A DNA stretch of 64,000 nt from an uncultured bacterium (GCA_905216195.1 CAJMSX010000012.1:1706-65705), one strand, 5' to 3'; positions 4,533 through 62,340 are shown, counted from the first letter of the stretch. The notes: generated by a model not told the origin, from the sequence alone. Numbers and translations are program-made.

Positions 4533-6173
4533 TTACCTCATTTTGTTATTGGTATATTTGGTAATGAGTGTATGGCGTAACCCCACATAGGTATCCATAA
4601 TGGCATCGGCACATTCCTGCGCATAGGCATTGAGTAGTTCCGTGGCCTTTTTAGGATTTTTTTTCTGCAATTCCCGGAATTGCTTTTCGATTTCAGCATT
4701 CCGTTTAAAGAAGCCGGCTTCCAGGGGAGCGCGTACTGCTTCCAAATCTTTTTTCCCATCCTGCCAGTTCAGATAAAGCAGATTATCCACAAAATCGATG
4801 GCCCAGCGGGCGGAGTTGTCGGCATATTGTTTCGGATCATAAGTGGAGTATACCGGCGGAATCCGGGTTACTCCGGTGAATACCGGCAGGTAAGGCGAAG
4901 TATAGGCATTATCCTGGAAGACCCAGTAAATGCCTCCGATTTCGCGGGGAAGACCGGCCCGTAACTGGGCTACCATACCGTATTCGCCGTCCGCCCGGGC
5001 AACCGCCCGTCTTCTGTTCGTTTTCATCAGTTTTTGCATTTCTCCGGAGGGGAAAGGCGTCGCTAATTTACTTTTAACCATTTTCCCGTTCCGGTCGGGG
5101 TAATACCAGGCAGCGTCGTTTTCTTTATCGTAGATGGTTCCGGTGAAGGTAGAACGCTGGAAGTCCATAAAATCTTGAACGGAAACCTTTTTATCCGGTT
5201 TGAAGGAAAAAGCGTAAAGGCTGAGCGGTTCCACATACTGAATATACTGATTCAGATTGCTGTAAGGATCCGCTGTCCTTCTCCCGGGCATGGGATCGAG
5301 GGAAGGAGCAAAGGTATTTACAAACAGCCAGAAACGGTTGGTAGCCCATTCCCGGGGAATGGGTGCATACACGTCTTGCCATACAAAAGGTTTACCGCTG
5401 GCGGGAGAATACCATCCTTTCTCGATGGCAACTTGCCGGTAGTTGGAAGAAGCTTTAAACCGATCCGGTTGCGATAAATCGATTTCCTGGATGATACTCC
5501 AGTTCGGGATAATGGCCACGTGCTCGTCGGGAAGTCGTTGCGCTGCCCAGATGACGCCTGGTTTTCCGCTTTCCGGAGTCCATCCTTTCCCGACGCTGAA
5601 AAGTTCCAGGATCCATACTTTATCCGGATCGGCCAGCGTCAGGCATTCCGATTCCGGGCCGCAAGAAGGAAGAAATCCGTATTTTTCCATCAGGGAAGTA
5701 ATGAGTTCCAGCGCTTCGTCGGCATTTTTACACCGTTGAAGGGCAAAGATCATGGCTTGTTCGACGGTCATGATTTGTGCCCCTTCTCCGAGAGATACCT
5801 GTAATTCCGGACGCTGACTCATGGTACTTTCCCCGATACAGAGTTGGTATTCGTTGATGTGGGAGTAGGCGGATTGAAAGTAGGTATAGGTTTGTTCTAC
5901 CTGAGGAATATAACCGAGAATTTCCCCATTATCGTCCAAGGGCAAATCCACGCGTTGTATGCCGTAATATACCGGAGCCTGGGCTCCCCGGGGAAATTTC
6001 TGTCCCGGAACGACGCGGATCCGGCAATCGGCTCCGGCATCGGTGTGGGAATTCAGTACGCTACCGTCTACCGTAGCCTTTTTTCCTGCTACAATGACCG
6101 TGCAGGCTTTTGTGAAGGATTGAGAAAAAACAAAAGCCAGTATACTAAGAGTGAGAAGTATTCTTTTTGTCAT
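4533..6173 (-). CDS. C69-family dipeptidase (exported)
   Basis: 546 aa. A signal peptide is followed by the nucleophile context FTKACTVIVAGKKATVDGSVLNSHTDAG, typical of peptidase C69. Confidence 0.8.
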   Translation of the reverse strand: MTKRILLTLSILAFVFSQSFTKACTVIVAGKKATVDGSVLNSHTDAGADCRIRVVPGQKFPRGAQAPVYYGIQRVDLPLDDNGEILGYIPQVEQTYTYFQSAYSHINEYQLCIGESTMSQRPELQVSLGEGAQIMTVEQAMIFALQRCKNADEALELITSLMEKYGFLPSCGPESECLTLADPDKVWILELFSVGKGWTPESGKPGVIWAAQRLPDEHVAIIPNWSIIQEIDLSQPDRFKASSNYRQVAIEKGWYSPASGKPFVWQDVYAPIPREWATNRFWLFVNTFAPSLDPMPGRRTADPYSNLNQYIQYVEPLSLYAFSFKPDKKVSVQDFMDFQRSTFTGTIYDKENDAAWYYPDRNGKMVKSKLATPFPSGEMQKLMKTNRRRAVARADGEYGMVAQLRAGLPREIGGIYWVFQDNAYTSPYLPVFTGVTRIPPVYSTYDPKQYADNSARWAIDFVDNLLYLNWQDGKKDLEAVRAPLEAGFFKRNAEIEKQFRELQKKNPKKATELLNAYAQECADAIMDTYVGLRHTLITKYTNNKMR

Positions 6174-33362: not shown

Positions 33363-33824
33363 TTAACTGTCTATTTGATCCGGTGGAATGGGAAGCCGAT
33401 AGCGGGCTTCGATAATTTCTTTTTCCGAAAAGAAAAAAGCCGTTTCCCAGGCGGCATTTTTTTCGCTGTCGGAGGCATGAATGGCATTCCGGGTGATGCT
33501 TTCTCCATAGAGGTTACGGATGCTTCCGCTTTCAGCCCGGGCCGGATCGGTAGCTCCGATGAATTTCCGGAAATCTGCTATGGCGTTTTCCTTTTCCAAC
33601 ACGGCAGCGACAATAGGACCGGAAGACATAAAAAGGCAAAGATTCCCGAAAAAGGGACGTTCCCGGTGTACGGCATAAAATTTCTCGGCGTCCGACCGGC
33701 TTAAAAACAGCATTTTCAGGGTGAGTATACGGAAACCCGCTTTTTCAATGCGGGCGAGTATATCCCCGGTATGTCCGTTCCCTACCGCATTGGGTTTCAG
33801 GATCGTAAATGTTCGGTTATTCAT
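33363..33824 (-). CDS. ndk: nucleoside-diphosphate kinase
   Basis: 153 aa. RTFTILKPNAV, GPIVAAVLE, NAIHASDS (catalytic His). Confidence 0.93.
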   Translation of the reverse strand: MNNRTFTILKPNAVGNGHTGDILARIEKAGFRILTLKMLFLSRSDAEKFYAVHRERPFFGNLCLFMSSGPIVAAVLEKENAIADFRKFIGATDPARAESGSIRNLYGESITRNAIHASDSEKNAAWETAFFFSEKEIIEARYRLPIPPDQIDS

Positions 33825-34048: not shown

Positions 34049-35818
34049 TTATCCACAGTTTTCCGCCACCATTTCTGCAATATCTTTCACCGGTATGCCG
34101 GCGGATTTCTTGGCGAAAGTCTTTTTGCATAACGGACATGCCGTAACCAGAACATCCGGTTTATAGACGGCATAAGCAGCTAGTGCGTCGGTGCTGATGC
34201 GGGTACGTTGTCCGGCCGTAATATGGGTATTAGCCAGGGAACCGCCGCAACATAAGGAATTTTTGCCGTCGTAGCCGGTCTCGATCTTCCGGCTGATGGC
34301 GCGGAGAACGCGCTCCGGCGCGATATATATTCCACTTCCTCTTCCCAGTTCGCAGGGATGATGAAAAACGGTTCGGTCGTTTGTTGCGGAAGTCTTTAAT
34401 TTACCTTCGGAAATCAGCCGGTCGAGGTATTCCGTATGATGCATAACCGGGATATCCAAGTCGTAATCTTCCCGGAAAGTTTTGTAGCAAATGGGGCAGG
34501 AGGTGACCAGTAAGAGGGCTCCTGAAGCTTTTATAGCGGCTTTGTTTTTTTCGATAATCACCGAAGCCGCCGCCTGGTTTCCAGTCAGACTCATAGGCCG
34601 TCCGCAACAGATGCCTCCGTTTTCGTCTATAAAACTGTAGTCCACTTTTGCTTGTCTGAAAATGTGGCACATAGCCGAAACGACTGCGGGAGTAAGCTGT
34701 CCCATACAACCTGCGAAATAGGCTATTTTCGCAGGTGGGATTCCCGGAGTTCCGATATAGCTGTAAGTGTCTTTATTGATGCGAATCAAATCGGGACGCT
34801 GACTTTGACGTAAAGCATTCAATTTCAGGTCGACGGGACAAGCCGCTTCACAGCGTCCGCATAACAGGCAATTTTCTGTTTGCAGGCTGTAATCTTTATG
34901 ATGTCTGATTTTTTTCAGAAAATATACCGCCTGGGTGTTATTCATTCCCAAAGAGGTATTTAGCTGGCAACGGTCGATGCAGATCCCGCAGCGGGAACAG
35001 GAGTATAATTGGAACCGGCTGAAAGAATTGAATTCCTTGCCTTGGCGGATGCCCCAATTTTTCAGGTAAATATACACGATTTCCGTCGGAATATGCATAT
35101 AACGGGAAAGAGGCAGGAGTATAAAAAAGAGACCGAGGGCTGAAGAATAGGCCCACCAGGCCGGATAAGCCATCGATTCCAGCGGCAGGAAGTCAGCGAA
35201 AAAATTCCCCGAGGTATTCGTCAGAAAACTTCCTCCTCCCCGCAAACCGCTGGTAAAACTTTCCGCCAGGTAGCGTAAGGGAAAAATGAGCCAGAGCACG
35301 GTCAGGATCAATAAATCCAGGGGACGGTGATTGGTCGTTTTTTTTAGTCCTACTATCCGGGAATAAAAGCGTTTGCATAAAGCCAGAAAAAGTCCCGTCA
35401 GTATAAACAGTAAAATCAGGTCTGTTAAAAAAGCGAAGAAATTACTGTAAGGGAAAGTTTCGTTCGCCGGGTGGAAGAAACGGAAAAAAATGGCGAAATA
35501 AGGGGGATTGAAAGCACTCGTATGATACACCATGGATTCCGTTTTCCCCGCTACAATGAGTAAAAACCAGCCCAGGCCGAAACACATATGCATATAGCCC
35601 AAAAAAGGATGAGTCCGGAATATCTTATGATGGACCAGACTTTCCAGGAACACTTCTTTCGTAGCCTTCCAGGTTTTCCGGCTGAAAAGCCCCTTGCGGA
35701 TTTTACGTTTCTCTTCCGGGGAGAATTGTCGGATCCAACGGACGTATTTTACGACCAGAAATATCAGTAAAAGGTTGAGTCCGATTGTAAAAGGCAATAC
35801 AAAACTATCGTAATACAT
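34049..35818 (-). CDS. membrane-anchored Fe-S/CCG-domain oxidoreductase (HdrE/DsrM-like membrane domain fused to HdrD/DsrK-like module)
   Basis: 589 aa. About 260 aa of N-terminal multi-TM region with conserved His, two ferredoxin motifs (CSRCGICIDRC, CLLCGRCEAACP) and two CCG-type domains (ICCGRP...CPICY; LCCGGS...CPLCK). Confidence 0.65.
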   Translation of the reverse strand: MYYDSFVLPFTIGLNLLLIFLVVKYVRWIRQFSPEEKRKIRKGLFSRKTWKATKEVFLESLVHHKIFRTHPFLGYMHMCFGLGWFLLIVAGKTESMVYHTSAFNPPYFAIFFRFFHPANETFPYSNFFAFLTDLILLFILTGLFLALCKRFYSRIVGLKKTTNHRPLDLLILTVLWLIFPLRYLAESFTSGLRGGGSFLTNTSGNFFADFLPLESMAYPAWWAYSSALGLFFILLPLSRYMHIPTEIVYIYLKNWGIRQGKEFNSFSRFQLYSCSRCGICIDRCQLNTSLGMNNTQAVYFLKKIRHHKDYSLQTENCLLCGRCEAACPVDLKLNALRQSQRPDLIRINKDTYSYIGTPGIPPAKIAYFAGCMGQLTPAVVSAMCHIFRQAKVDYSFIDENGGICCGRPMSLTGNQAAASVIIEKNKAAIKASGALLLVTSCPICYKTFREDYDLDIPVMHHTEYLDRLISEGKLKTSATNDRTVFHHPCELGRGSGIYIAPERVLRAISRKIETGYDGKNSLCCGGSLANTHITAGQRTRISTDALAAYAVYKPDVLVTACPLCKKTFAKKSAGIPVKDIAEMVAENCG

Positions 35819-35845
35819 AATTTTTTCCTCGTGCTAACAGAGATT

Positions 35846-36175
35846 TTACTTCCTCATATATTCGACCATAGCCAAGATCATTTTCCGGGTGTCTACTCCC
35901 CGGGGGCATACCAGGAGACATTTACCGCACAACATACATTTATGCAGGTTTTGGCGGGCTTCTTCATTTTCTCCCCGCTTCACCAGCATTTGCAGCTTCC
36001 GGATATTGAATTCCGTCAGTTGTCCTGCCGTACAGGTGGCCGTGCAACCGCCGCAGCCGATACAGAGTTTGCTGCTGGGAGCTTTTTGGGCCAGGTAGGC
36101 CGATAACGACTTGTCGTTTTTATCGTAATCGATCCCTCTGGCTTCCGGAATAGAATATCCCCAAAAATTCATCAT
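35846..36175 (-). CDS. small 2x[4Fe-4S] ferredoxin-like protein (HdrC-like)
   Basis: 109 aa. CIGCGGCTATC and CMLCGKCLLVCP separated by about 35 aa. Confidence 0.6.
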   Translation of the reverse strand: MMNFWGYSIPEARGIDYDKNDKSLSAYLAQKAPSSKLCIGCGGCTATCTAGQLTEFNIRKLQMLVKRGENEEARQNLHKCMLCGKCLLVCPRGVDTRKMILAMVEYMRK

Positions 36176-36190
36176 TTAATCGTTAATAAG

Positions 36191-37207
36191 TTATTGTTTA
36201 AACCAGGCTATAATCTCGGTGGCGGCAGAGCGGGCATCAGCCAGGGTGTCGGTCAGATTCATGGGAGCGGAACTGCATCCGGCTACAAAAATCCCGTCGA
36301 CACCGGTTCGGTTGTTGGCGTAATGGGGGTCCAGGGAACGGATAAATCCGTTGGGAGCCAATTCCAATCCCAATTGTTGTGCAGCTTGCCGGCTTCCTTC
36401 GGAAGATTCCATACCCACCATGAGGACCATCAGGTCCAGCGTCATTCGGATGGGTTTTCCCACCAGTGTGTCTTCCGCTTTGATGATAATTTGTTTGTTC
36501 CTATTTTCGGAAGCTTCCGATAGGCGGCCCCTTATGAATTTGATGTTGTATTTCTCCTGGGCTTCCCGGTACATTTCTTCGTATCCGGGTCCGAACATCC
36601 GCATATCCATGTAGAAACAGAGAATTTCAGCTTCGGGCAGCAGTTCCCGGGTTTCGATGGCTTGTTTGACGGCTGTAATGCAACAGAGCTTGGAACAATG
36701 AAAGTTGCATATTTTTTCATCCCGGGAACCTACGCAGTGGATGAAACCGATCCGTTGAGGAATTTTTCCGCCGGGGAGTGACAGGGTATGATTGCTGAAC
36801 AGATTTTCCAGTTCCAGAGAAGTGATGACGTTCTCGTATATGCCGTAACCGTATTCTTCCTTTCTTCGGGCTTCGAATAGTTTGAAACCGGTCGTAATCA
36901 ACAGGGCGTCTCCTTCGAGCAAAGTCTGGTCGCTGAGTAATACGGTATATTTACCGTTGTCCAGACGGGAGAAGCGGGTGGCTTCATTGTTGATATAAAG
37001 GGTGATACCGGGGTGTTTCAAGTGATTTTTCAGTCTTTCGTTTACTTCTCCGGCACTTTTCCGGTCGGGGAAAAGCTGGTACCAGTTGTTAAGATTTCCG
37101 CCGGTTCCGTTTTCCTTTTCCACCAGGTCTACCCGGATGCCTCCGGTGGCCAGCCGGTATGCGGCTTCACATCCTGCCGGCCCGCCGCCGATAATGATCA
37201 CCTTCAT
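36191..37207 (-). CDS. HdrA-like FAD-dependent oxidoreductase (short form)
   Basis: 338 aa. FAD fold MKVIIIGGGPAGCEAA and the HdrA-type cluster motif IHCVGSRDEKICNFHCSKLCC. Confidence 0.65.
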   Translation of the reverse strand: MKVIIIGGGPAGCEAAYRLATGGIRVDLVEKENGTGGNLNNWYQLFPDRKSAGEVNERLKNHLKHPGITLYINNEATRFSRLDNGKYTVLLSDQTLLEGDALLITTGFKLFEARRKEEYGYGIYENVITSLELENLFSNHTLSLPGGKIPQRIGFIHCVGSRDEKICNFHCSKLCCITAVKQAIETRELLPEAEILCFYMDMRMFGPGYEEMYREAQEKYNIKFIRGRLSEASENRNKQIIIKAEDTLVGKPIRMTLDLMVLMVGMESSEGSRQAAQQLGLELAPNGFIRSLDPHYANNRTGVDGIFVAGCSSAPMNLTDTLADARSAATEIIAWFKQ

Positions 37208-37227
37208 ATTTTTTCGCGTATTAGAGG

Positions 37228-38322
37228 TTATCCTATTGTGTTTTTTTCTTCATTTTTCACTTTGAGATAAGTCGGACAGGCCGGTTCTCCCAAAGATTCT
37301 CCTTTTATGTTGCAATATTTCGTTTCCGGGTTGTAAGCGATGCCCATTTTATCCAGCAGAGGTTCCACGGCCACCTGGTGCATTTGCAAGCCGATCTCCC
37401 AGGGATCGTATCCCAACACCAGGGCGGTCAGTTCTTCGTAGGTAAGTACCGGAATGCCGAAACCGTTGGCGCCGTAAGTAACTCCTTCCATTTCACTGAT
37501 GGTGTATTGCCATTTGTCGAGGAACATGGCGCAGCCGGGACAATTCGCTACGATAAAGTCAGGTTCATAGGCTTGCATGGATTCGAATTTCTTTTTGGAA
37601 TTGGCTACCGAAAATCCCCGGTTGGCCATAATCAGGTAATTACGGAATCCGAAACCGCAACAATGCCTTCGTTCCGGATAATCTATCGTTTCCCCTCCCC
37701 AGGCTTCGATCAGTCCCGAGAGAACCGCCGGAAATTCGGCTCCCCCCACTCCTTTGGAAGGGAACATTTTAGCGTAATGACATCCGATATGATCCACTCC
37801 CTGTAAAGGACGTCCCGAATGAACGTCTTTTAAGGTATAAGCAGCCTGAGCTGCAATTTCATTTCGGAATTTGTATATGATATCCGAAGTATGGGCCAGG
37901 TTTTTGGGTTTGTTGAATTCCCGCCGGGTGGCTTTCCACAGGTATTCCCTGATTTTTTCTTCCATTTCCGGATGATGCTCCCAGGTATCCAGAATCTCGG
38001 TATAGATACCGAAGGAAGTGATACAGGAAGGGGTCATATTCTCATATCCGGCCTCCGTCATCAGGGCGAAATGCCGGGCCACTACCGTCATAATCGTCTC
38101 CACGGGCACCACATCCGAGTGGTAACCGATACCGGTACAGGTGGTATGCCGTGGGTCATCCAGGACTTTTTTATTTAATTTATTCCGGAGAATATCCAGA
38201 TAAGCCCATTCCGAACCGGGAAAGAAAGTTTGCCGGATGCAACTCCGGGCATAAAAATAGTGGTCCTCGGCTATTTCTTTCTGATAGTCTTTCCAGATTT
38301 GTTGTTTTCCCAGAAGATTCAT
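37228..38322 (-). CDS. HdrB-like CCG-domain subunit
   Basis: CCG-domain cysteines (TTCTGIGY, HCCGFGFRN, ANCPGCAMF). I prefer the start at 38322 (MNLLGKQQ), which removes the 68-nt overlap created by the ORF-track start at 38412. Confidence 0.65.
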   Translation of the reverse strand: MNLLGKQQIWKDYQKEIAEDHYFYARSCIRQTFFPGSEWAYLDILRNKLNKKVLDDPRHTTCTGIGYHSDVVPVETIMTVVARHFALMTEAGYENMTPSCITSFGIYTEILDTWEHHPEMEEKIREYLWKATRREFNKPKNLAHTSDIIYKFRNEIAAQAAYTLKDVHSGRPLQGVDHIGCHYAKMFPSKGVGGAEFPAVLSGLIEAWGGETIDYPERRHCCGFGFRNYLIMANRGFSVANSKKKFESMQAYEPDFIVANCPGCAMFLDKWQYTISEMEGVTYGANGFGIPVLTYEELTALVLGYDPWEIGLQMHQVAVEPLLDKMGIAYNPETKYCNIKGESLGEPACPTYLKVKNEEKNTIG

Positions 38323-38344
38323 ATGCTGATGCTGTAATTGCTGT

Positions 38345-39040
38345 TTATTTTTCAGTGTGCGTGCCGTTGTTTTCAGTATATACCTGTATGAAATATTCTT
38401 CCATATCGGCATGTTCCTCTGCGGCTTTTTCCTCCGAACAGCGTTGTATCCGGTTCAGGAAATCGGTGCCTCCGGTGACGTCGAATATGCTGTGGAGTTC
38501 CCGCATGCTTTCGGGGTCCACCTGCCGCAGGGTGCCGGCACCCGACCGGTTATAATTGGCATGCACCCTTTCGTATACTTCTTCGCGGTGGGCATAAATC
38601 CATTCCCACACCGGCCCTTGCTCCGGATGCATTTCCGGTTTTACGATATCGGGAGTGACACAATATCCTCTTTCCAGAATGTTGTGGTCGATTACTTTTT
38701 TTAAAGCATATTGCTGACGTCCCTTTTCGGAGGCCGTAAACAATCCCTCGTCCTGAGAAAGTTTACGCAGGGCCATAATGATCAGCCCCGGCGTATTCCC
38801 GCGGGGACAGCGAGTCTTGCACGACATGCATTCTCCACAATACCAGATGGTATCGGATTGTAACAAATACCGGAGCGCTTCCTCATCGTTGCGTTGTATG
38901 GTGTCGGCAATGATGCGGGGATCGTAGTTGTAAAATTCAGCCGCCGGACAAATGGCCGTGCATACGCCGCAGTTCATGCAGCTGTTTATTCCTTCGATGT
39001 AGTGAATGTCGTTTTTTAATTTTTCGAGTAAATCGGACAT
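38345..39040 (-). CDS. HdrC-like 2x[4Fe-4S] subunit
   Basis: 231 aa. CMNCGVCTAICP and CGECMSCKTRCP motifs. First gene of the minus-strand cluster. Confidence 0.65.
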   Translation of the reverse strand: MSDLLEKLKNDIHYIEGINSCMNCGVCTAICPAAEFYNYDPRIIADTIQRNDEEALRYLLQSDTIWYCGECMSCKTRCPRGNTPGLIIMALRKLSQDEGLFTASEKGRQQYALKKVIDHNILERGYCVTPDIVKPEMHPEQGPVWEWIYAHREEVYERVHANYNRSGAGTLRQVDPESMRELHSIFDVTGGTDFLNRIQRCSEEKAAEEHADMEEYFIQVYTENNGTHTEK

Positions 39041-39270
39041 GTTTTACGGGTTTTGAATAATCCCTTCAATCGGGTATACTCTGTCAAATACAAAATTAGA
39101 GTTAAAAAGAAGAGGGTTAAAGTGAGAAAATGCGTATTCGTAATGTGTATTTATACTTAGAAAAATAAGGTGTTTCCTTTTGTCACCCTCTCCGGTAACC
39201 CGCTGTCGATCGTAACCGTTTCCCCGGTTTTCGCGTATAATATTGATATTAATTATTTAAATTTAAGCAA

Positions 39271-39849
39271 ATGAATAAGTCAGTAAAGGGAACATTGACC
39301 GAACAAAATTTATTGAAGGCTTTTGCCGGAGAATCTCAGGCTAAAAACAGGTATACCTTTTTTGCCGAAGTAGCCCGGAAAGAAGGCTATGAACAAATTG
39401 CCGGCATTTTTTATGAAACGGCCTTACAGGAAGAGACCCATGCCAAACGTTTTTTCAGTTACCTGGAAGGGGGTATGGTCGAGATTACGGCCGCCTACCC
39501 GGCAGGGGCCATACTGGATACTCCGCTTAATTTACAGGAAGCCGCGGAAGGTGAGTTCGACGAATGGCATAACTTGTATCCCCTGTTCGGACAAATAGCT
39601 GCCGATGAGGGTTTTGCAACCATAGCGGCTCTTTTTCGACATGTAACGGAGGTGGAAAAAATGCATGAAAACCGATATTTGAAATTATTGGACAATCTCC
39701 GGGCCGGTCTTGTATTTTCCCGGCCGGAAGAGGTGAGATGGTATTGCCGGAAATGCGGTTATGTACATATCGGAAAAGAGGCTCCTAAAATTTGTCCCTC
39801 CTGTTTACATCCTCAGGCTTATTTCGAGTTGTTTCCGGATAACTATTAA
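39271..39849 (+). CDS. rbr: rubrerythrin
   Basis: 192 aa. Diiron ferritin-like EEThA and EKMHE motifs plus the C-terminal rubredoxin CRKCGY...CPSC. Confidence 0.92.
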   Translation: MNKSVKGTLTEQNLLKAFAGESQAKNRYTFFAEVARKEGYEQIAGIFYETALQEETHAKRFFSYLEGGMVEITAAYPAGAILDTPLNLQEAAEGEFDEWHNLYPLFGQIAADEGFATIAALFRHVTEVEKMHENRYLKLLDNLRAGLVFSRPEEVRWYCRKCGYVHIGKEAPKICPSCLHPQAYFELFPDNY

Positions 39850-40068: not shown

Positions 40069-40809
40069 ATGAAAAAATATGATTTAAACGGTTTTAATAT
40101 TATAGAATTTGAAGAGCTGGATTCCACCAATACCCGGGCGACGGAATTGCCGGAGAGGGAGTTAGCGGATAAAACGGTGGTGATGACCTTCCGGCAGATG
40201 CAGGGTCGGGGACAGACCGGAAATAAATGGGAAAGCGAGCCTTATAAAAATCTTTCGGTAACTTTTGTGTTGATGCCTCAACGCTATGATGCCGCCCGGC
40301 AATTCGCATTTTCGATGGTTATCGCTTTGGGTTGCCGGGATTTTATTGCCCGTTACACCGGGAATTGCAGCATCAAATGGCCTAACGACGTGTATGTAGG
40401 GGATCGGAAAATAGCCGGAATTTTAATTGAACATCATATTTCGGGGCGTTATATTCATCGCTCCCTTTGTGGAATCGGAGTGAATATCAATCAGCGGAAG
40501 TTTGTTTCCGATGCGCCTAATCCGGTATCCTTATTCCAACTGACCGGAAAAGAGATGGATCTCAAACAGACGTTGGCTGAGTTCCTGGGCTGTATGGCGC
40601 ACCGATACGGGCAGATTTACGACTATGAAAAATTGGAAGAGGATTATTTACGTTATCTTTACCGAAAGGAAGGGGAGTACCGATGGGAAGACGGGGAGGG
40701 CGCTTTTAGGGCTTCCGTGGCAGGAATAGACGAATACGGCCGGCTGGTATTGAAAGATGAGTCGGGATGTATCCGCAAATACGGATTTAAAGAAGTGGTG
40801 TTTAAATAA
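40069..40809 (+). CDS. birA: biotin--[acetyl-CoA-carboxylase] ligase (no N-terminal HTH)
   Basis: 246 aa. FRQMQGRGQTGNKWES, KWPNDVYVGDRKIAGILIE. Confidence 0.85.
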   Translation: MKKYDLNGFNIIEFEELDSTNTRATELPERELADKTVVMTFRQMQGRGQTGNKWESEPYKNLSVTFVLMPQRYDAARQFAFSMVIALGCRDFIARYTGNCSIKWPNDVYVGDRKIAGILIEHHISGRYIHRSLCGIGVNINQRKFVSDAPNPVSLFQLTGKEMDLKQTLAEFLGCMAHRYGQIYDYEKLEEDYLRYLYRKEGEYRWEDGEGAFRASVAGIDEYGRLVLKDESGCIRKYGFKEVVFK

Positions 40810-43706: not shown

Positions 43707-45125
43707 ATGTACGACGTCAAATCGAAAATCGCAGAAGAATTTATTGACGATGCAGAGATTTTATCGACCCTAGAGTATGCCCAGGCCAATAAAAATAATC
43801 GCCAACTGATCGAGAGTCTCATCGAAAGAGCCAGAGACTGCAAAGGGCTGACTCATCGGGAAGCGGCCCTCCTGCTGGAATGTGAGGATCCGGACCTGAT
43901 TGAAAGAATGTTTCAGGTGGCCCGGGAAATCAAGCAGAAATTTTACGGCAACCGTATTGTGATGTTTGCTCCCCTTTATTTGTCCAATTATTGTGTCAAC
44001 GGTTGTGTCTATTGTCCTTATCATGCTAAGAACAAAACCATTGCACGACGTAAGCTGTCCCAGGAAGAAATCCGGCAGGAAGTCATCGCTCTTCAGGATA
44101 TGGGACACAAGCGCCTGGCCATCGAGGTGGGGGAGCATCCTGTACTGAATCCCATAGAATACATTCTGGAAAGCATTGAGACGATCTATTCCATCAAGCA
44201 TAAGAACGGAGCCATCCGCCGGGTCAATGTCAATATTGCGGCCACGACGGTGGAAAATTACCGGAAACTCCACGAAGCTGGTATCGGTACCTATATTCTC
44301 TTTCAGGAAACTTACCATAAAAAAAATTATGAGGCATTGCATCCCAATGGCCCTAAAAGTAATTATGCCTACCATACCGAAGCCATGGATCGGGCGATGG
44401 AAGGCGGGATCGATGATGTCGGAATAGGAGTATTGTATGGTCTGAATACCTATCGGTATGATTTTGTGGGTTTGCTGATGCATGCCGAACATCTCGAAGC
44501 CGTGTTCGGAGTGGGACCGCATACCATCAGTGTACCCCGTCTGTGTAATGCGGACGATATCAGTACCGATGATTTTTCCAATACCGTTCCCGACGATATT
44601 TTCCAGAGAATCGTAGCGGTGATCCGGATCGCCGTTCCTTATACCGGAATGATCGTTTCCACCCGGGAATCCCAGGTTTCCCGGGAAAAGGTTCTGGATA
44701 TCGGAGTATCTCAAATCAGCGGGGGATCGCATACAAGTGTGGGCGGGTATGTAAATAAAGAGGAGTTCGACGAAACTACTTCTCAGTTCGATGTCTCCGA
44801 CCGCCGCACCCTGGATGAGGTTGTAGGCTGGTTGCTGGACCTCGGTTATATTCCCAGTTTCTGCACCGCCTGCTACCGGGAAGGACGTACCGGCGACCGG
44901 TTTATGACCCTGGTCAAATCGGGACAGATTGCCAATTGCTGTCAGCCCAATGCCTTGATGACCTTGAAAGAGTACCTGGAGGACTACGCTTCTCCCCAGA
45001 CCCGGGCAAAGGGGGAACGTATGATTGCAGCCGAAATGCTGCGCGTACCCAGTGAAAAAGTGAGAAGGATCGCCTTGAAAAATCTGGAAGAGATCGCCGG
45101 AGGGAAACGGGATTTTAGATTCTGA
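43707..45125 (+). CDS. hydG: [FeFe]-hydrogenase H-cluster radical SAM maturase HydG
   Basis: 472 aa. Radical SAM CVNGCVYCPY and a C-terminal CTAC-x21-CC auxiliary cluster motif (the CX2CX22C type that separates HydG from ThiH). Confidence 0.8.
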   Translation: MYDVKSKIAEEFIDDAEILSTLEYAQANKNNRQLIESLIERARDCKGLTHREAALLLECEDPDLIERMFQVAREIKQKFYGNRIVMFAPLYLSNYCVNGCVYCPYHAKNKTIARRKLSQEEIRQEVIALQDMGHKRLAIEVGEHPVLNPIEYILESIETIYSIKHKNGAIRRVNVNIAATTVENYRKLHEAGIGTYILFQETYHKKNYEALHPNGPKSNYAYHTEAMDRAMEGGIDDVGIGVLYGLNTYRYDFVGLLMHAEHLEAVFGVGPHTISVPRLCNADDISTDDFSNTVPDDIFQRIVAVIRIAVPYTGMIVSTRESQVSREKVLDIGVSQISGGSHTSVGGYVNKEEFDETTSQFDVSDRRTLDEVVGWLLDLGYIPSFCTACYREGRTGDRFMTLVKSGQIANCCQPNALMTLKEYLEDYASPQTRAKGERMIAAEMLRVPSEKVRRIALKNLEEIAGGKRDFRF

Positions 45126-58866: not shown

Positions 58867-59736
58867 ATGAAAAGAGTTATAAAACTACAACTTGTCGGGG
58901 CAGTGGCGATAGCTACGCTTCTTGCTGCCTGCGACGTGAAAGACCCCATTTACAACACTCCGCACCCGGAGCACGGTAAAATCACGCTGACTACCGAGTG
59001 GGACGGAATCGGTGAGGGACTGCAAGCCCCCGACAGCTATACGGTCTGCATCGGCGACTATACGACCAACGTGAGCGGCTCGACCAACACGCTCGACCAC
59101 CTTTTCGCGCCGGGAACCTACCGCATGCTCATTTACAACACGCCCGAAAATATCAGCTTCGACGGGACGGTGGCGGATGCGATGAACGGTGACACGCATG
59201 ATCCCGGCTGGCTCTTCTCCTACTCCGCAGAGGTGACGATTTCAAAAGATACCGATCACGCCTTTACGGCTGTGATGAAGCAACAGTTGCGGGAATTGAC
59301 GCTGGTGATCGAACCCACGGGCGACGCCGCCGACCGGATAGAAAGCATCAAGGGCTATTTGAATGCGATAGCCGGTAAGTTCGACATGGAAAACGAGACT
59401 TACTTATTTCCAATAATGTTAATGTTTGATTTCTCGAAGATTGCCGACGGGCCCGATGCCGGGAAATGGAGTTCCACCATACGGACGTTAGGCTTCATGC
59501 CGGAAGAATCTAAAGGGCTGAGTCTCAAAATCCACTACAAAGACGGCAATCCCGAAATGCAAATCGTAACAAGCGATCTTACGGAGGCTTTGGCGGGATT
59601 CAACGACGACAAGCGCACGCCCCTGACGCTGGGCGGATCGGTGGTGGATACGCCTACCGGAGCCGGGTTCGGAGCAATCATTGACGACTGGACGGCAGGC
59701 AACGGCGACGGCGAAGATATAGACGCGAATATGTAA
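58867..59736 (+). CDS. FimB/Mfa2-like fimbrial anchor lipoprotein
   Basis: 289 aa. Lipobox ATLLAAC. Size, position and the IESIKGYLNAIAGKFDMEN segment resemble Mfa2-family anchors. Confidence 0.5.
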   Translation: MKRVIKLQLVGAVAIATLLAACDVKDPIYNTPHPEHGKITLTTEWDGIGEGLQAPDSYTVCIGDYTTNVSGSTNTLDHLFAPGTYRMLIYNTPENISFDGTVADAMNGDTHDPGWLFSYSAEVTISKDTDHAFTAVMKQQLRELTLVIEPTGDAADRIESIKGYLNAIAGKFDMENETYLFPIMLMFDFSKIADGPDAGKWSSTIRTLGFMPEESKGLSLKIHYKDGNPEMQIVTSDLTEALAGFNDDKRTPLTLGGSVVDTPTGAGFGAIIDDWTAGNGDGEDIDANM

Positions 59737-59769
59737 CAATCGATCATATAATAATTAAATACAAGCAAA

Positions 59770-60705
59770 ATGATGAAATCAGTAACTCCAATCCGCCTGT
59801 CCGCCATCCTGATGGCGACGGCTTTCCTCTTTGCAGGATGTGAAAAAGAGAACGAAAACACAGTAGATAACCAGCCCGTAAAGGCGCGTATCACCTCCGT
59901 CATCGACGGCATGGCCACACGCGCCTCGGGCACGGCATGGGCGCCGGGCGACCGCATCGGCATCACCGCAAAGAAAGCGGACGGCACAGTGCTCTTCACC
60001 AACATGCCCTACGTCACCACAGAGGGCGACGGTGTGTTCACCCCCGAAGGCGAAGCCTTCTATTTTCAGGATAAAGACGAAGTGACTTTTACCGCCTATT
60101 ATCCTTTCACCGAAAGCAGCTACATGGCAGACGACCGCTGGATAATGTTTCTAACAGGCGGATTGGAAAGCCAGAAGCCCGAAAACCAACCGAAGTATGA
60201 CGTCCTGTTTGCCACCACCACGGGCAGCTCCTCCAGCCCCGACCTGCAACTGCGCTTCTGCCATTGCATGAGCCGCTTCGTGCTCCGCTTCCTGCCGGGC
60301 ACCGGTGTCGCTTCGCTCGACGACATCACCTACGAGCTTAGTGGGATAATAACGGGCGGCATATTCAACACCCTGACCGGAGAAACCATCGTCAATGAAA
60401 CCTCAGTAAGCGTGGGCCTCACCGTCCCCGGCAGCAACGCCTCCGAACTGACCTCCCCGCTCATCCTCTTCCCCCAACAGAGCGAGGACGATAAAACGCT
60501 CACGCTCACTATGCGGGGCAAGACCTACACCGCTACGTTCAAGTTTAAGGAAAACCCGAACAACGGGAACGTGCGCGAACTGGCGGCAGGGCACACCTAT
60601 ACCTATAATGTAAAGATAAACAATACGTCGATGACCATCACTCCCGCCACCATCTCTAATTGGGAAGAGGGTGGCAGCGAGAATATCGACAGTACCAACA
60701 ATTAA
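59770..60705 (+). CDS. fimbrillin-family (Mfa-like) pilin lipoprotein
   Basis: 311 aa. Lipobox FLFAGC, then ...GMATRASGTAWAPGDRIGI, which is the Arg processing-site context and GD.IG block typical of Bacteroidales fimbrillin-like proteins. Confidence 0.6.
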   Translation: MMKSVTPIRLSAILMATAFLFAGCEKENENTVDNQPVKARITSVIDGMATRASGTAWAPGDRIGITAKKADGTVLFTNMPYVTTEGDGVFTPEGEAFYFQDKDEVTFTAYYPFTESSYMADDRWIMFLTGGLESQKPENQPKYDVLFATTTGSSSSPDLQLRFCHCMSRFVLRFLPGTGVASLDDITYELSGIITGGIFNTLTGETIVNETSVSVGLTVPGSNASELTSPLILFPQQSEDDKTLTLTMRGKTYTATFKFKENPNNGNVRELAAGHTYTYNVKINNTSMTITPATISNWEEGGSENIDSTNN

Positions 60706-60717
60706 ACACGATCCGTT

Positions 60718-62340
60718 ATGAAACTGAATAATCACCCATTTCGCACTGCTGCGCTGCTGCTGCTCGTAATGCTGGCGGCAGCCTGCACGAAGGAAGACGA
60801 CTTTACCGCGTCCCCCGACGAGGGTACGGCAAACGCCGCGCCCCTCCTCACCATCACCGTGACGGACGGCGCATACGCCTCGGCGGAAACGCCGGACAAC
60901 GATAACATCCCCGGCACCCGCGCCGTGGAGCGTGGCTACGGCACGGAGTTCACCAAAGGCGACTGCATAGGGCTGTATGTGGTGGAGATGAAGAATGCCT
61001 CTGGAAGCAGAGTATTCCTCCACGAAAACCTCTGCCTCACCCACGACGGCACGGGCTGGACGCTGCCCGCCGGCACGGAACTGACGTACCAACCGCCCAC
61101 CGGCGGAGAAATAATCTACCTTGCCTATTATCCTTATCAGAACGATATGGCGGGTAAAGTCAATATTGACGCCTTGAACCCAAATGGACAGGGTGCCGAA
61201 GCCCGGTGGTTTTTCTCCCGCCTAATCGAGAGGTGGCAGCCCGCCACCGACCAAAGCACTTACGAAGCCTACACCGCCAGCGACCTGATGGTGGCACGCG
61301 GAGAGGTGGCGAAGCGCACCGACGGCACGGACGGTTCCGTGCTCAACTTCACGATGGAGCATCAGATGCCGCTGGCAATTATCCGCCTGCCGACGACAAA
61401 ATATACCTACTCCGAAACCATCGACGGCACGGAGACGAAGAAAAGCTACCGCCTTTATTCCGGACTGGATGCCAAAGCATGGCTTGCCGACGACAATACA
61501 TACCGTCGTATTATGAAATGGTATCCTACGACCAACATAGGAATCGAAGCTTCCTATTACAATTCCTCACTCGAAAGGCGTATTTTTAGAGGAACTATCA
61601 AGGCCGATAGTCCCGGCAAATATTTCTTATTCACCGTCGACGGCGGCGAGGAAACCGAGACCGAACGAGTTCTCCAAGTGGGAGATTTCTACATGAGCGA
61701 CGGTACAATCATTCCGAACGAACATGTTACGTCTACGATGCCTGCTGCCATACAGAAAGAGTGTGTAGGCGTGGTGTACGCCGTGGGCGAAGAGAAAGTC
61801 GGCGGCTACAAACGGAACGACCACCTGCTGAAGCGCGACTATCCTAACTGCACGCACGGATTGGTGCTGGCTCTGCAAAATGCATCAGACAACTGCGCGT
61901 GGAGCAATACGAATGAGTTAGTAAATGATTGGACAAACGCGCCCGAAAGAGGAGAGGAACAGGTAGATATATCGGAATCGAATAGTTTCAAAGGGTACTC
62001 TTCAACAAAAGCAATATTGGCTTATAATGCTGCCTATCCCGATAAGGCGGTATTGGCCGCAGAGACTGCCAGACAATATAAAGTTGCAAGTCCCGAAGGG
62101 AGCAGCGGATGGTTTATGATGGATATGAATGATGCTGCAGTAATAAAATTGAAGGCTCTTAATTCGATTCAGAATGCTCTCGAAAAAGCAGGAGGCGTAA
62201 AAGTTGAAGGCTCCTATTGGACGAGTTTTGAATATGGTCAGAATAAGGCATTCTGTCTCGATATGCCTACTCAGGAGCAACTTGGTCTATGGTGCTCTAA
62301 GAGTGACCAGCGTCCTGTCCGTCCCGTGCTCGCCTTTTAG
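60718..62340 (+). CDS. fimbrillin-family protein with C-terminal DUF1566 (Lcl-like) domain, candidate tip adhesin
   Basis: 540 aa. Lipobox MLAAAC, then IPGTRAVERGYGTEFTKGDCIGLYV. The C-terminal GWFMMDMNDAAV...YWTSFEY...RPVRPVLAF resembles DUF1566. Confidence 0.55.
   Translation: MKLNNHPFRTAALLLLVMLAAACTKEDDFTASPDEGTANAAPLLTITVTDGAYASAETPDNDNIPGTRAVERGYGTEFTKGDCIGLYVVEMKNASGSRVFLHENLCLTHDGTGWTLPAGTELTYQPPTGGEIIYLAYYPYQNDMAGKVNIDALNPNGQGAEARWFFSRLIERWQPATDQSTYEAYTASDLMVARGEVAKRTDGTDGSVLNFTMEHQMPLAIIRLPTTKYTYSETIDGTETKKSYRLYSGLDAKAWLADDNTYRRIMKWYPTTNIGIEASYYNSSLERRIFRGTIKADSPGKYFLFTVDGGEETETERVLQVGDFYMSDGTIIPNEHVTSTMPAAIQKECVGVVYAVGEEKVGGYKRNDHLLKRDYPNCTHGLVLALQNASDNCAWSNTNELVNDWTNAPERGEEQVDISESNSFKGYSSTKAILAYNAAYPDKAVLAAETARQYKVASPEGSSGWFMMDMNDAAVIKLKALNSIQNALEKAGGVKVEGSYWTSFEYGQNKAFCLDMPTQEQLGLWCSKSDQRPVRPVLAF

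Follow-up and report, generated by a model that had tools for sequence, protein, structure and literature searches.

A five-gene Hdr-like unit of Bacteroidales related to the sHdr systems of sulfur oxidisers and fused to a putative quinone-linked membrane anchor

Introduction

What might a set of heterodisulfide reductase (Hdr)-like proteins do in an anaerobic gut bacterium, and where would its electrons go? This question is raised by a cluster of genes on the minus strand of the window, by which we mean the whole 64,000-nt stretch of DNA from an uncultured bacterium (GCA_905216195.1, CAJMSX010000012.1:1706-65705), and the region analysed here spans positions 34049-39040. The original prediction, made from the DNA alone, had placed a five-gene Hdr-like cluster at this site, and using open reading frame (ORF) calls and Pfam we confirmed both the ORFs and their domains. 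With moderate confidence we propose that the products of the five genes make up a single membrane-bound redox complex. It would represent a branch, specific to Bacteroidales, of the lineage from which the sHdr of sulfur oxidisers also arose, and would pass electrons from a thiol or sulfane-sulfur reaction to menaquinone.

Results

The five genes form a conserved unit in Bacteroidales

Five minus-strand ORFs run head to tail through the region, with intergenic gaps of 22, 20, 15 and 27 bp. In the direction of transcription these encode a HdrC1-like subunit with two [4Fe-4S] sites (P0001; 231 amino acids (aa); 38345..39040), a HdrB1-type subunit (P0002; 364 aa; 37228..38322), a short HdrA-like flavoprotein with flavin adenine dinucleotide (FAD) and one [4Fe-4S] cluster (P0003; 338 aa; 36191..37207), a 2x[4Fe-4S] ferredoxin (P0004; 109 aa; 35846..36175), and a membrane subunit with NarI-like, HdrC-like and HdrB/HdrD-like domains (P0005; 589 aa; 34049..35818). 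The lengths and gaps given here take the HdrB start to be M31 (38322), which is most likely correct rather than position 38412, where the longest ORF begins, because the resulting 364-aa product equals the database gene call P0158 and fits the ortholog lengths of 353-358 aa.

At least 581 relatives were confirmed, the nearest named ones being from Odoribacter, Sanguibacteroides, Butyricimonas and Culturomica, and the more distant from Rikenella, Marinilabiliaceae and many uncultured Bacteroidales. All loci that cover the unit from end to end share the order HdrC-HdrB-HdrA-ferredoxin-membrane protein, the remainder being interrupted by contig ends or frameshifts, and the arrangement is therefore not due to chance. 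Gene order stays intact down to 38-45% identity, and in relatives the stop and start codons of neighbouring genes often overlap. Two divergent cases (HdrA 38%, HdrB 57-63% identity), one of them a Bacteroidales metagenome-assembled genome (MAG), carry the identical five-gene unit. P0061 and P0142, which gene calls had presented as C-B-A-only or sHdr-like contexts, proved by ORF and blastp analysis to belong to the five-gene unit, with P0061 coming from a Bacteroidales MAG.

We then drew an even sample of 201 Bacteroidales genomes from 168 genera, of which 77 had the HdrB-type gene and 76 (~38%) the membrane subunit, these being nearly the same genomes, with presence spanning 68 of the genera and including the human-gut genera Odoribacter and Butyricimonas. 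When this HdrB type was sought at E <= 1e-60 in a sample of 301 Bacteroidota genomes, no genome outside Bacteroidales contained it. The gaps of only 15-27 bp, the identical order and the shared distribution of the HdrB and membrane genes together indicate a single unit, and we infer that the five proteins belong to a single complex. In structural prediction of complexes (HdrA and the soluble part of the membrane subunit, with the ferredoxin as partner) a control scored nearly as high, and the result thus speaks neither in favour of binding nor against it. In three relatives that do not carry the unit (G018, G019 and G025) we observed HdrA-like genes side by side, with products of ~445 and 655 aa, which recalls the arrangement of QmoA/QmoB.

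The soluble subunits retain their cofactor ligands

P0001 contains two CxxCxxCxxxCP motifs, with a Fer4_8 match in Pfam (2.4e-11) and HdrC models as the best match in NCBIfam (2.6e-24; 86 bits against a cut-off of 350), and in an alignment of 77 orthologs, which was used to assess ligands throughout, its eight cluster cysteines and C127 are invariant. P0002 matches CCG in Pfam (9.9e-11) and HdrB in NCBIfam (2.2e-42; 145 bits against a cut-off of 450), and, with 57-89% identity, no other subunit is as well conserved. Its N-terminal CCG domain retains three of five cysteines (C58, C92 and C130), all invariant, and its C-terminal CCG motif is complete. In P0003, GGGPAG lies near the start and is followed by CVGSRD...CSKLCC, with matches to Pyr_redox_2 in Pfam (7.3e-21) and HdrA/HdrA2 in NCBIfam (8.9e-74; 249 bits against the HdrA cut-off of 1100); C158, C171, C175 and C176 are invariant and provide the four cysteines for one [4Fe-4S] cluster. 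P0004 matches Fer4 families in Pfam (1e-9) and HdrC models in NCBIfam (5e-9), and all eight cysteines of its two [4Fe-4S] motifs are invariant. No model reached its curated NCBIfam cut-off for any of the five proteins, and database names for the orthologs are generic only, such as 'heterodisulfide reductase subunit B'.

The HdrC-HdrB-HdrA core is related to sHdr

True sHdr loci of sulfur oxidisers were retrieved using a peptide pattern derived from the alignment to the sHdrA structure 6TJR, and loci from Ectothiorhodospira, Thioalkalivibrio and Acidithiobacillus formed the set compared by blastp. P0001-P0003 matched sHdrC1, sHdrB1 and sHdrA of sulfur oxidisers with 26-32% identity (E 1e-28 to 1e-69), with P0001 being 26-28% identical to sHdrC1. 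Alignment of P0002 with sHdrB1 revealed three common features that are missing from sHdrB2 and canonical HdrB: the CC of the first motif is reduced to one Cys, CxxC is replaced by 'C-x-TSFG', and the sequence 'CCGFGFR' is present. P0002 retains the final CxxC (CPGC) where sHdrB1 has DTGC. P0003 matched 6TJR over its full length (1.4e-58), whereas only core regions could be aligned with methanogen HdrA (~50% identical), with no counterpart to the HdrA ferredoxin domains. By raw score, the P0003 core is equally near methanogen HdrA and sHdrA.

A quick maximum-likelihood search on 77 HdrA sequences, with support from the Shimodaira-Hasegawa-like approximate likelihood ratio test (SH-aLRT) only, split all short forms, sHdrA included, from 36 long HdrAs, which were included without names, by a branch with 100% support. 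Within the short forms sHdrA is a clade of its own (100%) on a long stem, and P0003 falls outside it, in a separate clade (95%) with other Bacteroidales-type proteins. Three outlying short HdrAs (P0032, P0133 and P0059) come from contigs too short to show their gene context. The phylogeny proposed in the original prediction thus places the HdrA on the sHdr side of the short/long division but not within sHdrA itself. Together with the HdrB1 signature and the blastp identities, it bears out the further suggestion that the layout of C, B, A, a small protein and a C/B-like unit is related to sHdr.

A different outcome was obtained for the 109-aa protein, which had been taken for the counterpart of the sHdr 'hyp' protein (sHdrH). 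Although the 2x[4Fe-4S] ferredoxin occupies the 'hyp' position between hdrA and the second module, no window protein matched the ORFs found between hdrA and hdrC2 of true sHdr loci. P0004 instead resembles the N-terminal half of sHdrC2, a weak match in blastp (28% identity, 1e-8), whereas 'hyp' is not a ferredoxin.

The membrane subunit has an EMO/HdrDE-type architecture

P0005 has a hydrophobic N-terminus of 260 residues followed by two [4Fe-4S] motifs and two CCG motifs. Pfam recognised CCG twice (2.8e-18) and Fer4, and not the membrane domain. Using a 24-sequence alignment we built an AlphaFold2 model, which has five transmembrane helices and a block-mean predicted local distance difference test (pLDDT) of ~66-96, with most blocks at 80-95; the CCG domain is well modelled and the cubane domain poorly. 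The top Foldseek match was to the whole chain of Mycobacterium smegmatis EtfD (9OJN, E 2e-16), in agreement with the sequence search, followed by HdrB chains and LutA. This is also the best match to any solved structure. The last gene is a membrane-anchored HdrE/HdrD-type fusion, as had been predicted.

Both CCG sets of P0005 are complete, and H63, H77, H242, the eight cubane cysteines and the ten CCG cysteines are 99-100% conserved among the 77 orthologs and invariant in the 24-sequence alignment. Two of the histidines lie in helix II and one just past helix V. An invariant Tyr224, 18 residues before H242, is at the position of the distal helix-V histidine of NarI and of the ETF (electron transfer flavoprotein):menaquinone oxidoreductase (EMO) of Syntrophus aciditrophicus (SaEMO), an equivalence that is derived from spacing rather than structural superposition. 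The subunit is accordingly predicted to bind one bis-His proximal haem, with an uncertain distal site. P0005 is a single-copy protein with no paralog in the genome, in which the only CCG-domain genes are those of the five-gene unit, and which holds two EtfAB pairs and no other EMO candidate.

A possible path for electrons

We infer the following path, including the type of substrate and menaquinone as the acceptor. A cytoplasmic thiol, disulfide or sulfane-sulfur, carried by a small molecule or a carrier protein, would react at the HdrB1-type non-cubane Fe-S site or sites, a class of substrate to which the kinship of HdrB with sHdrB1 points. Electrons would then move through the two cubane clusters of HdrC1 and enter the short HdrA at its [4Fe-4S] cluster and FAD. 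Either the 109-aa ferredoxin or a direct docking contact would carry them to the 589-aa subunit, where they would cross the non-cubane and cubane clusters to haem b in the NarI-like membrane domain and finally reach menaquinone. Substrate oxidation coupled to menaquinone reduction, feeding fumarate respiration, would be the favoured direction, and reverse flow is conceivable.

Sulfur-related genes accompany the unit in some lineages

In one sister family (f7; genomes G030 and G175) the membrane gene is followed directly, on the same strand, by a gene for cysteate synthase, an enzyme that uses sulfite, making a six-gene unit. In G030 (contig C3, 4637-5923; L241) it is separated from the membrane gene by 18 bp, and in G175 (contig C6, 10803-12077; L257) it lies just downstream; the f7 protein scores 442 bits with TIGR03844, over the cut-off. 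Furthermore, genome G201 contains a second HdrC1-B1 pair (L243, G201:C1:2551000-2569000) within a sulfur-type island. Both cases are lineage-specific, but the cysteate synthase of f7, which hints at sulfite, and the DsrE/TusA-associated pair of G201 lend more weight to a sulfur substrate.

The L243 island also encodes a Crp-family regulator, DsrE, DrsE_2, TusA and MvhD/FlpD, as well as QmoA-like (436 aa), QmoB-like (568 aa) and QmoC-like Fer4 proteins. Counting this one, second HdrC1-HdrB1 pairs were observed at 11 loci in other Bacteroidales genomes (L243, L245, L247, L248 and L250-L256), with 48-57% and 60-68% identity to P0001 and P0002, respectively. No HdrA, ferredoxin or membrane gene was found within ~9 kb at any of the 11. 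Ten of these loci sit with DUF134 and NifX-like Nitro_FeMo-Co small proteins, while ~285-aa proteins occur at six and thioesterase-like proteins at five. Such surroundings suggest that C1-B1 serves as a module that has been combined with different partners.

Two further sulfur-related genes were observed in the genome of the window itself. Contig C83 encodes a cysteate synthase (4811-6103; L242; TIGR03844 497.8 bits, over the cut-off), an enzyme present in 24 of 24 sampled genomes of the window's family; Odoribacter has been reported to produce sulfonolipids, with which this gene is consistent. Contig C13 contains an open frame of ~828 aa (58911-61400; L088) that joins a pyridine-nucleotide-disulfide oxidoreductase resembling CoA-disulfide reductase (CoADR) to rhodanese, TusA and DrsE_2 domains, a fusion that was found in 25 of the 201 Bacteroidales genomes.

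Surroundings of the operon

The unit is separated from a divergent rubrerythrin gene (39271-39849) by an intergenic region of 230 bp shared between them (39041..39270). No other gap 5' of the five genes has room for a promoter, which makes this the probable promoter region of the operon, and a TAnnTTTG-like element, TAATTTTG, could be read ~50 nt upstream of the HdrC start. Downstream, ndk (nucleoside diphosphate kinase; 33363-33824, minus strand) begins 224 bp beyond the last Hdr gene on the same strand. A consensus scan of the minus strand detected two weak terminator-like hairpins before ndk, both within the last Hdr gene, and since the first intergenic hairpin (33345-33330) lies after ndk, read-through from the Hdr-like operon into ndk is possible.

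Rubrerythrin and hydG had been highlighted as neighbours, and both are indeed nearby, hydG at 43707-45125 and thus 4.7 kb from the unit. Neither is conserved beyond the genus: the rubrerythrin neighbour is kept in five loci of one genus only, and hydG is not a conserved neighbour at all, so that both were rejected as partners. A gene of the BPL_LplA_LipB family ~1 kb upstream (40069-40809, plus strand) was considered as a sHdr-type lipoate ligase and rejected, since it encodes the biotin ligase BirA (TIGR00121, 126.6 bits, above the cut-off), in a form without the repressor domain. Only two neighbours were conserved in a survey of ~75 loci: a gene for a lipoprotein-like product of 180 aa, to which Pfam has no match (46 loci), and an opposite-strand purL (40 loci). 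Neither of them hints at function.

Discussion

How far does the evidence support a membrane-anchored, sHdr-like oxidation of sulfur compounds? Several observations weigh against it. No accessory gene is conserved beside the unit across the surveyed loci, which leaves the substrate without a genomic pointer in this genome, and some enzymes that contain CCG domains act on non-sulfur substrates (Lut, Glp, Glc and archaeal Sdh). TusA, DsrE and rhodanese genes are missing from among the conserved neighbours, and in the genome these domains are present only as the fused protein on another contig. The search of the genome for a dedicated LbpA found none, its single GcvH-family gene being accompanied by GcvP, GcvT and LipA, as expected for an ordinary glycine cleavage system. 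Likewise, cysteate synthase and the unit co-occur only weakly, with the enzyme in 21 of 76 genomes that have the unit and 20 of 125 that do not, and the CoADR-rhodanese-TusA-DrsE_2 fusion is found in 11 of 77 with the unit and 14 of 124 without. Finally, the membrane domain of P0005 has only three invariant histidines and, with Tyr224 replacing the distal histidine, its haem content is uncertain.

The lipoate-binding and DsrE/TusA proteins suggested in the original prediction are not linked to the unit, the nearby ligase-family gene being BirA and the sole GcvH that of the glycine cleavage system. The fusion protein shows no association with the unit, and cysteate synthase was rejected as an obligate partner, as it is absent from within 6 kb of the unit in all 80 close loci and its order-wide co-occurrence is weak. 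As the partners that define sHdr are missing, we do not file the cluster as sHdr and regard it as a sister variant.

Three other explanations were weighed, each of which we find less supported than the membrane-anchored sHdr-like reading. The complex might be a quinone-linked analogue of Qmo or FixABCX with flavin-based bifurcation or confurcation, in which the HdrA flavin splits or merges electrons among menaquinone, a low-potential ferredoxin or flavodoxin served by the 109-aa ferredoxin, and a mid-potential HdrB couple. HdrA is the bifurcating subunit of methanogen HdrABC, the P0003 core is ~50% identical to it, and electrons could leave by three routes, namely through HdrC1-B1, through the small ferredoxin or through the membrane subunit. 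However, in methanogen HdrA the low-potential branch runs through ferredoxin domains that the short HdrA does not have, the loci surveyed show no link between the unit and a hydrogenase, formate dehydrogenase or NAD(P)H module, and bifurcation is a property that cannot be read from a sequence; we consider this unlikely.

The resemblance of P0005 to EtfD, with its identical three-domain build, and the presence in the genome of two EtfAB pairs with no other EMO candidate, would also fit an EMO that serves butyrate or acyl-CoA metabolism, with the Hdr-like proteins as accessory or alternative input. Yet at the loci examined the gene is always part of the Hdr-like operon, with etfAB beside it in no case, the two CCG motifs are complete where characterised EMOs have a variant distal cluster, and the histidine pattern departs from the EMO consensus, all of which makes such a role quite improbable. 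We give equally little credence to a menaquinol-driven disulfide reductase working in the HdrDE direction for thiol homeostasis or repair of oxidative stress. The membrane subunit does possess a complete HdrD-like set of catalytic cysteines, and in the genus a rubrerythrin gene is divergently upstream, but that neighbour is conserved in just five loci of a single genus, the need for a HdrC1-B1-A module is left unexplained, and menaquinol, judging by redox potentials, is a poor reductant for common cellular disulfides.

Within the membrane-anchored sHdr-like reading a more specific role can be suggested, although we hold it to be doubtful. The complex could be an oxygen-independent generator of sulfite, oxidising sulfane sulfur derived from abundant gut sulfide or cysteine at the HdrB1-type site and passing electrons to menaquinone and on to fumarate. 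If so, it would feed cysteate synthase, and through it sulfonolipids, in anaerobes unable to make sulfite from sulfate, and the source of sulfite for these bioactive lipids of gut anaerobes would be explained. Supplying sulfite for sulfonolipids is possible for some lineages, but it cannot be a strict general dependency, because the link to cysteate synthase is lineage-specific and its co-occurrence with the unit across the order is weak.

Bacteroidales are dominant in the gut and in anaerobic digesters and are regarded as having well-mapped respiratory chains, to which the unit would add a quinone-linked enzyme. Work on the short HdrA-HdrB1-HdrC1 core has so far been confined to sulfur oxidisers of aerobic or lithotrophic habit, yet strict anaerobes possess a large sister branch of it, there attached to a different electron exit. 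With five genes and no accessory set, the unit would also provide a genetically simpler second system for the HdrB1-type non-cubane site, and being widespread, compact and experimentally tractable it is of real interest.

Comparison with known systems

Our literature search found no publication that describes the operon or ties Odoribacter or Bacteroidales to a five-gene unit of this kind, and none that combines 'sHdr' with 'Bacteroidetes'. In published sHdr surveys 'hyp' is required together with C2B2, or else B3 together with etfAB; Bacteroidota are not mentioned in the survey examined.

Assignment to a well-characterised system of another kind, which had been named as the case that would overturn the prediction, found no support, with no Lut, Glp, Glc, Qmo, Dsr or Tfr model near its cut-off. 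The scores were 54.7 bits for GlpC (cut-off 278), 43.9 for GlcF (333), 25 for the LutB family (445), 36.7 for QmoC (300) and 30.5 for DsrK (400), and no LutB/LutC, GlpA/GlpB or GlcD/GlcE partner gene was present at the loci. Nor is the cluster the HdrABC of the coenzyme B-coenzyme M (CoB-CoM) heterodisulfide, since P0001-P0003 are far below the respective cut-offs and P0003 aligns only to the core of methanogen HdrA, a protein with N-terminal, inserted and C-terminal ferredoxin domains.

One of the closest known systems is type I sHdr (shdrC1B1AHC2B2 plus lbpA) of sulfur oxidisers such as Hyphomicrobium denitrificans, Acidithiobacillus and Thioalkalivibrio. In both systems the genes run C1-B1-A and then continue into another ferredoxin/CCG unit. 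HdrB1-type motifs are common to the two, as is a short HdrA that binds FAD and a single [4Fe-4S] cluster, and both CCG motifs are complete in HdrB2 of type I as they are in P0005. Unlike type I, the window unit has no 'hyp', its C2 is shrunk to 109 aa, its B2 equivalent is fused to a cubane domain of its own and to a haem-type membrane anchor, and there is no linked lbpA, lipoylation or sulfurtransferase gene; its host is an anaerobic gut fermenter, unlike those of type I.

Type II sHdr (shdrC1B1AHB3-etfAB-emo) of Sulfobacillus, Chloroflexota and Actinobacteriota, which we compared by its published description rather than locus against locus, has in common with the window unit the C1-B1-A core and an EMO-type exit to menaquinone, the latter proposed in type II to be reached via EtfAB and EMO (PMC11094781). 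In the window unit HdrB3, EtfAB and 'hyp' are missing, and only the small ferredoxin stands between the core and the EMO-type protein.

As in P0005, a five-helix NarI-like domain, a HdrC-like domain and a domain with non-cubane clusters are joined in one chain in EMO/EtfD of S. aciditrophicus and M. smegmatis (9OJN). The S. aciditrophicus enzyme, in which the NarI-like domain holds haem b, has been likened to HdrDE, and the non-cubane clusters of EMO conduct electrons from the ETF flavin, via haem b, to (methyl)menaquinone (2026 preprint on the S. aciditrophicus EMO structure, 10.64898/2026.08.18.745454). P0005 is shorter, with 589 aa compared with 706 aa in S. aciditrophicus EMO and 742 residues in the modelled chain of M. 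smegmatis EtfD, and identity is ~16%. EMO has one histidine in helix II, one in helix V and one past helix V, whereas P0005 has two in helix II and one past helix V, and in place of the variant distal cluster of characterised EMOs it has two complete CCG motifs, as in HdrB and HdrD. The latter feature is shared with the methanophenazine-dependent HdrDE of Methanosarcina, which likewise pairs a membrane cytochrome b with a HdrC/HdrB-type cytoplasmic unit. No CoM/CoB pathway would be expected in the organism studied here, and, unlike HdrDE, its E and D parts are fused into one protein that is encoded within an operon with HdrC, HdrB and HdrA.

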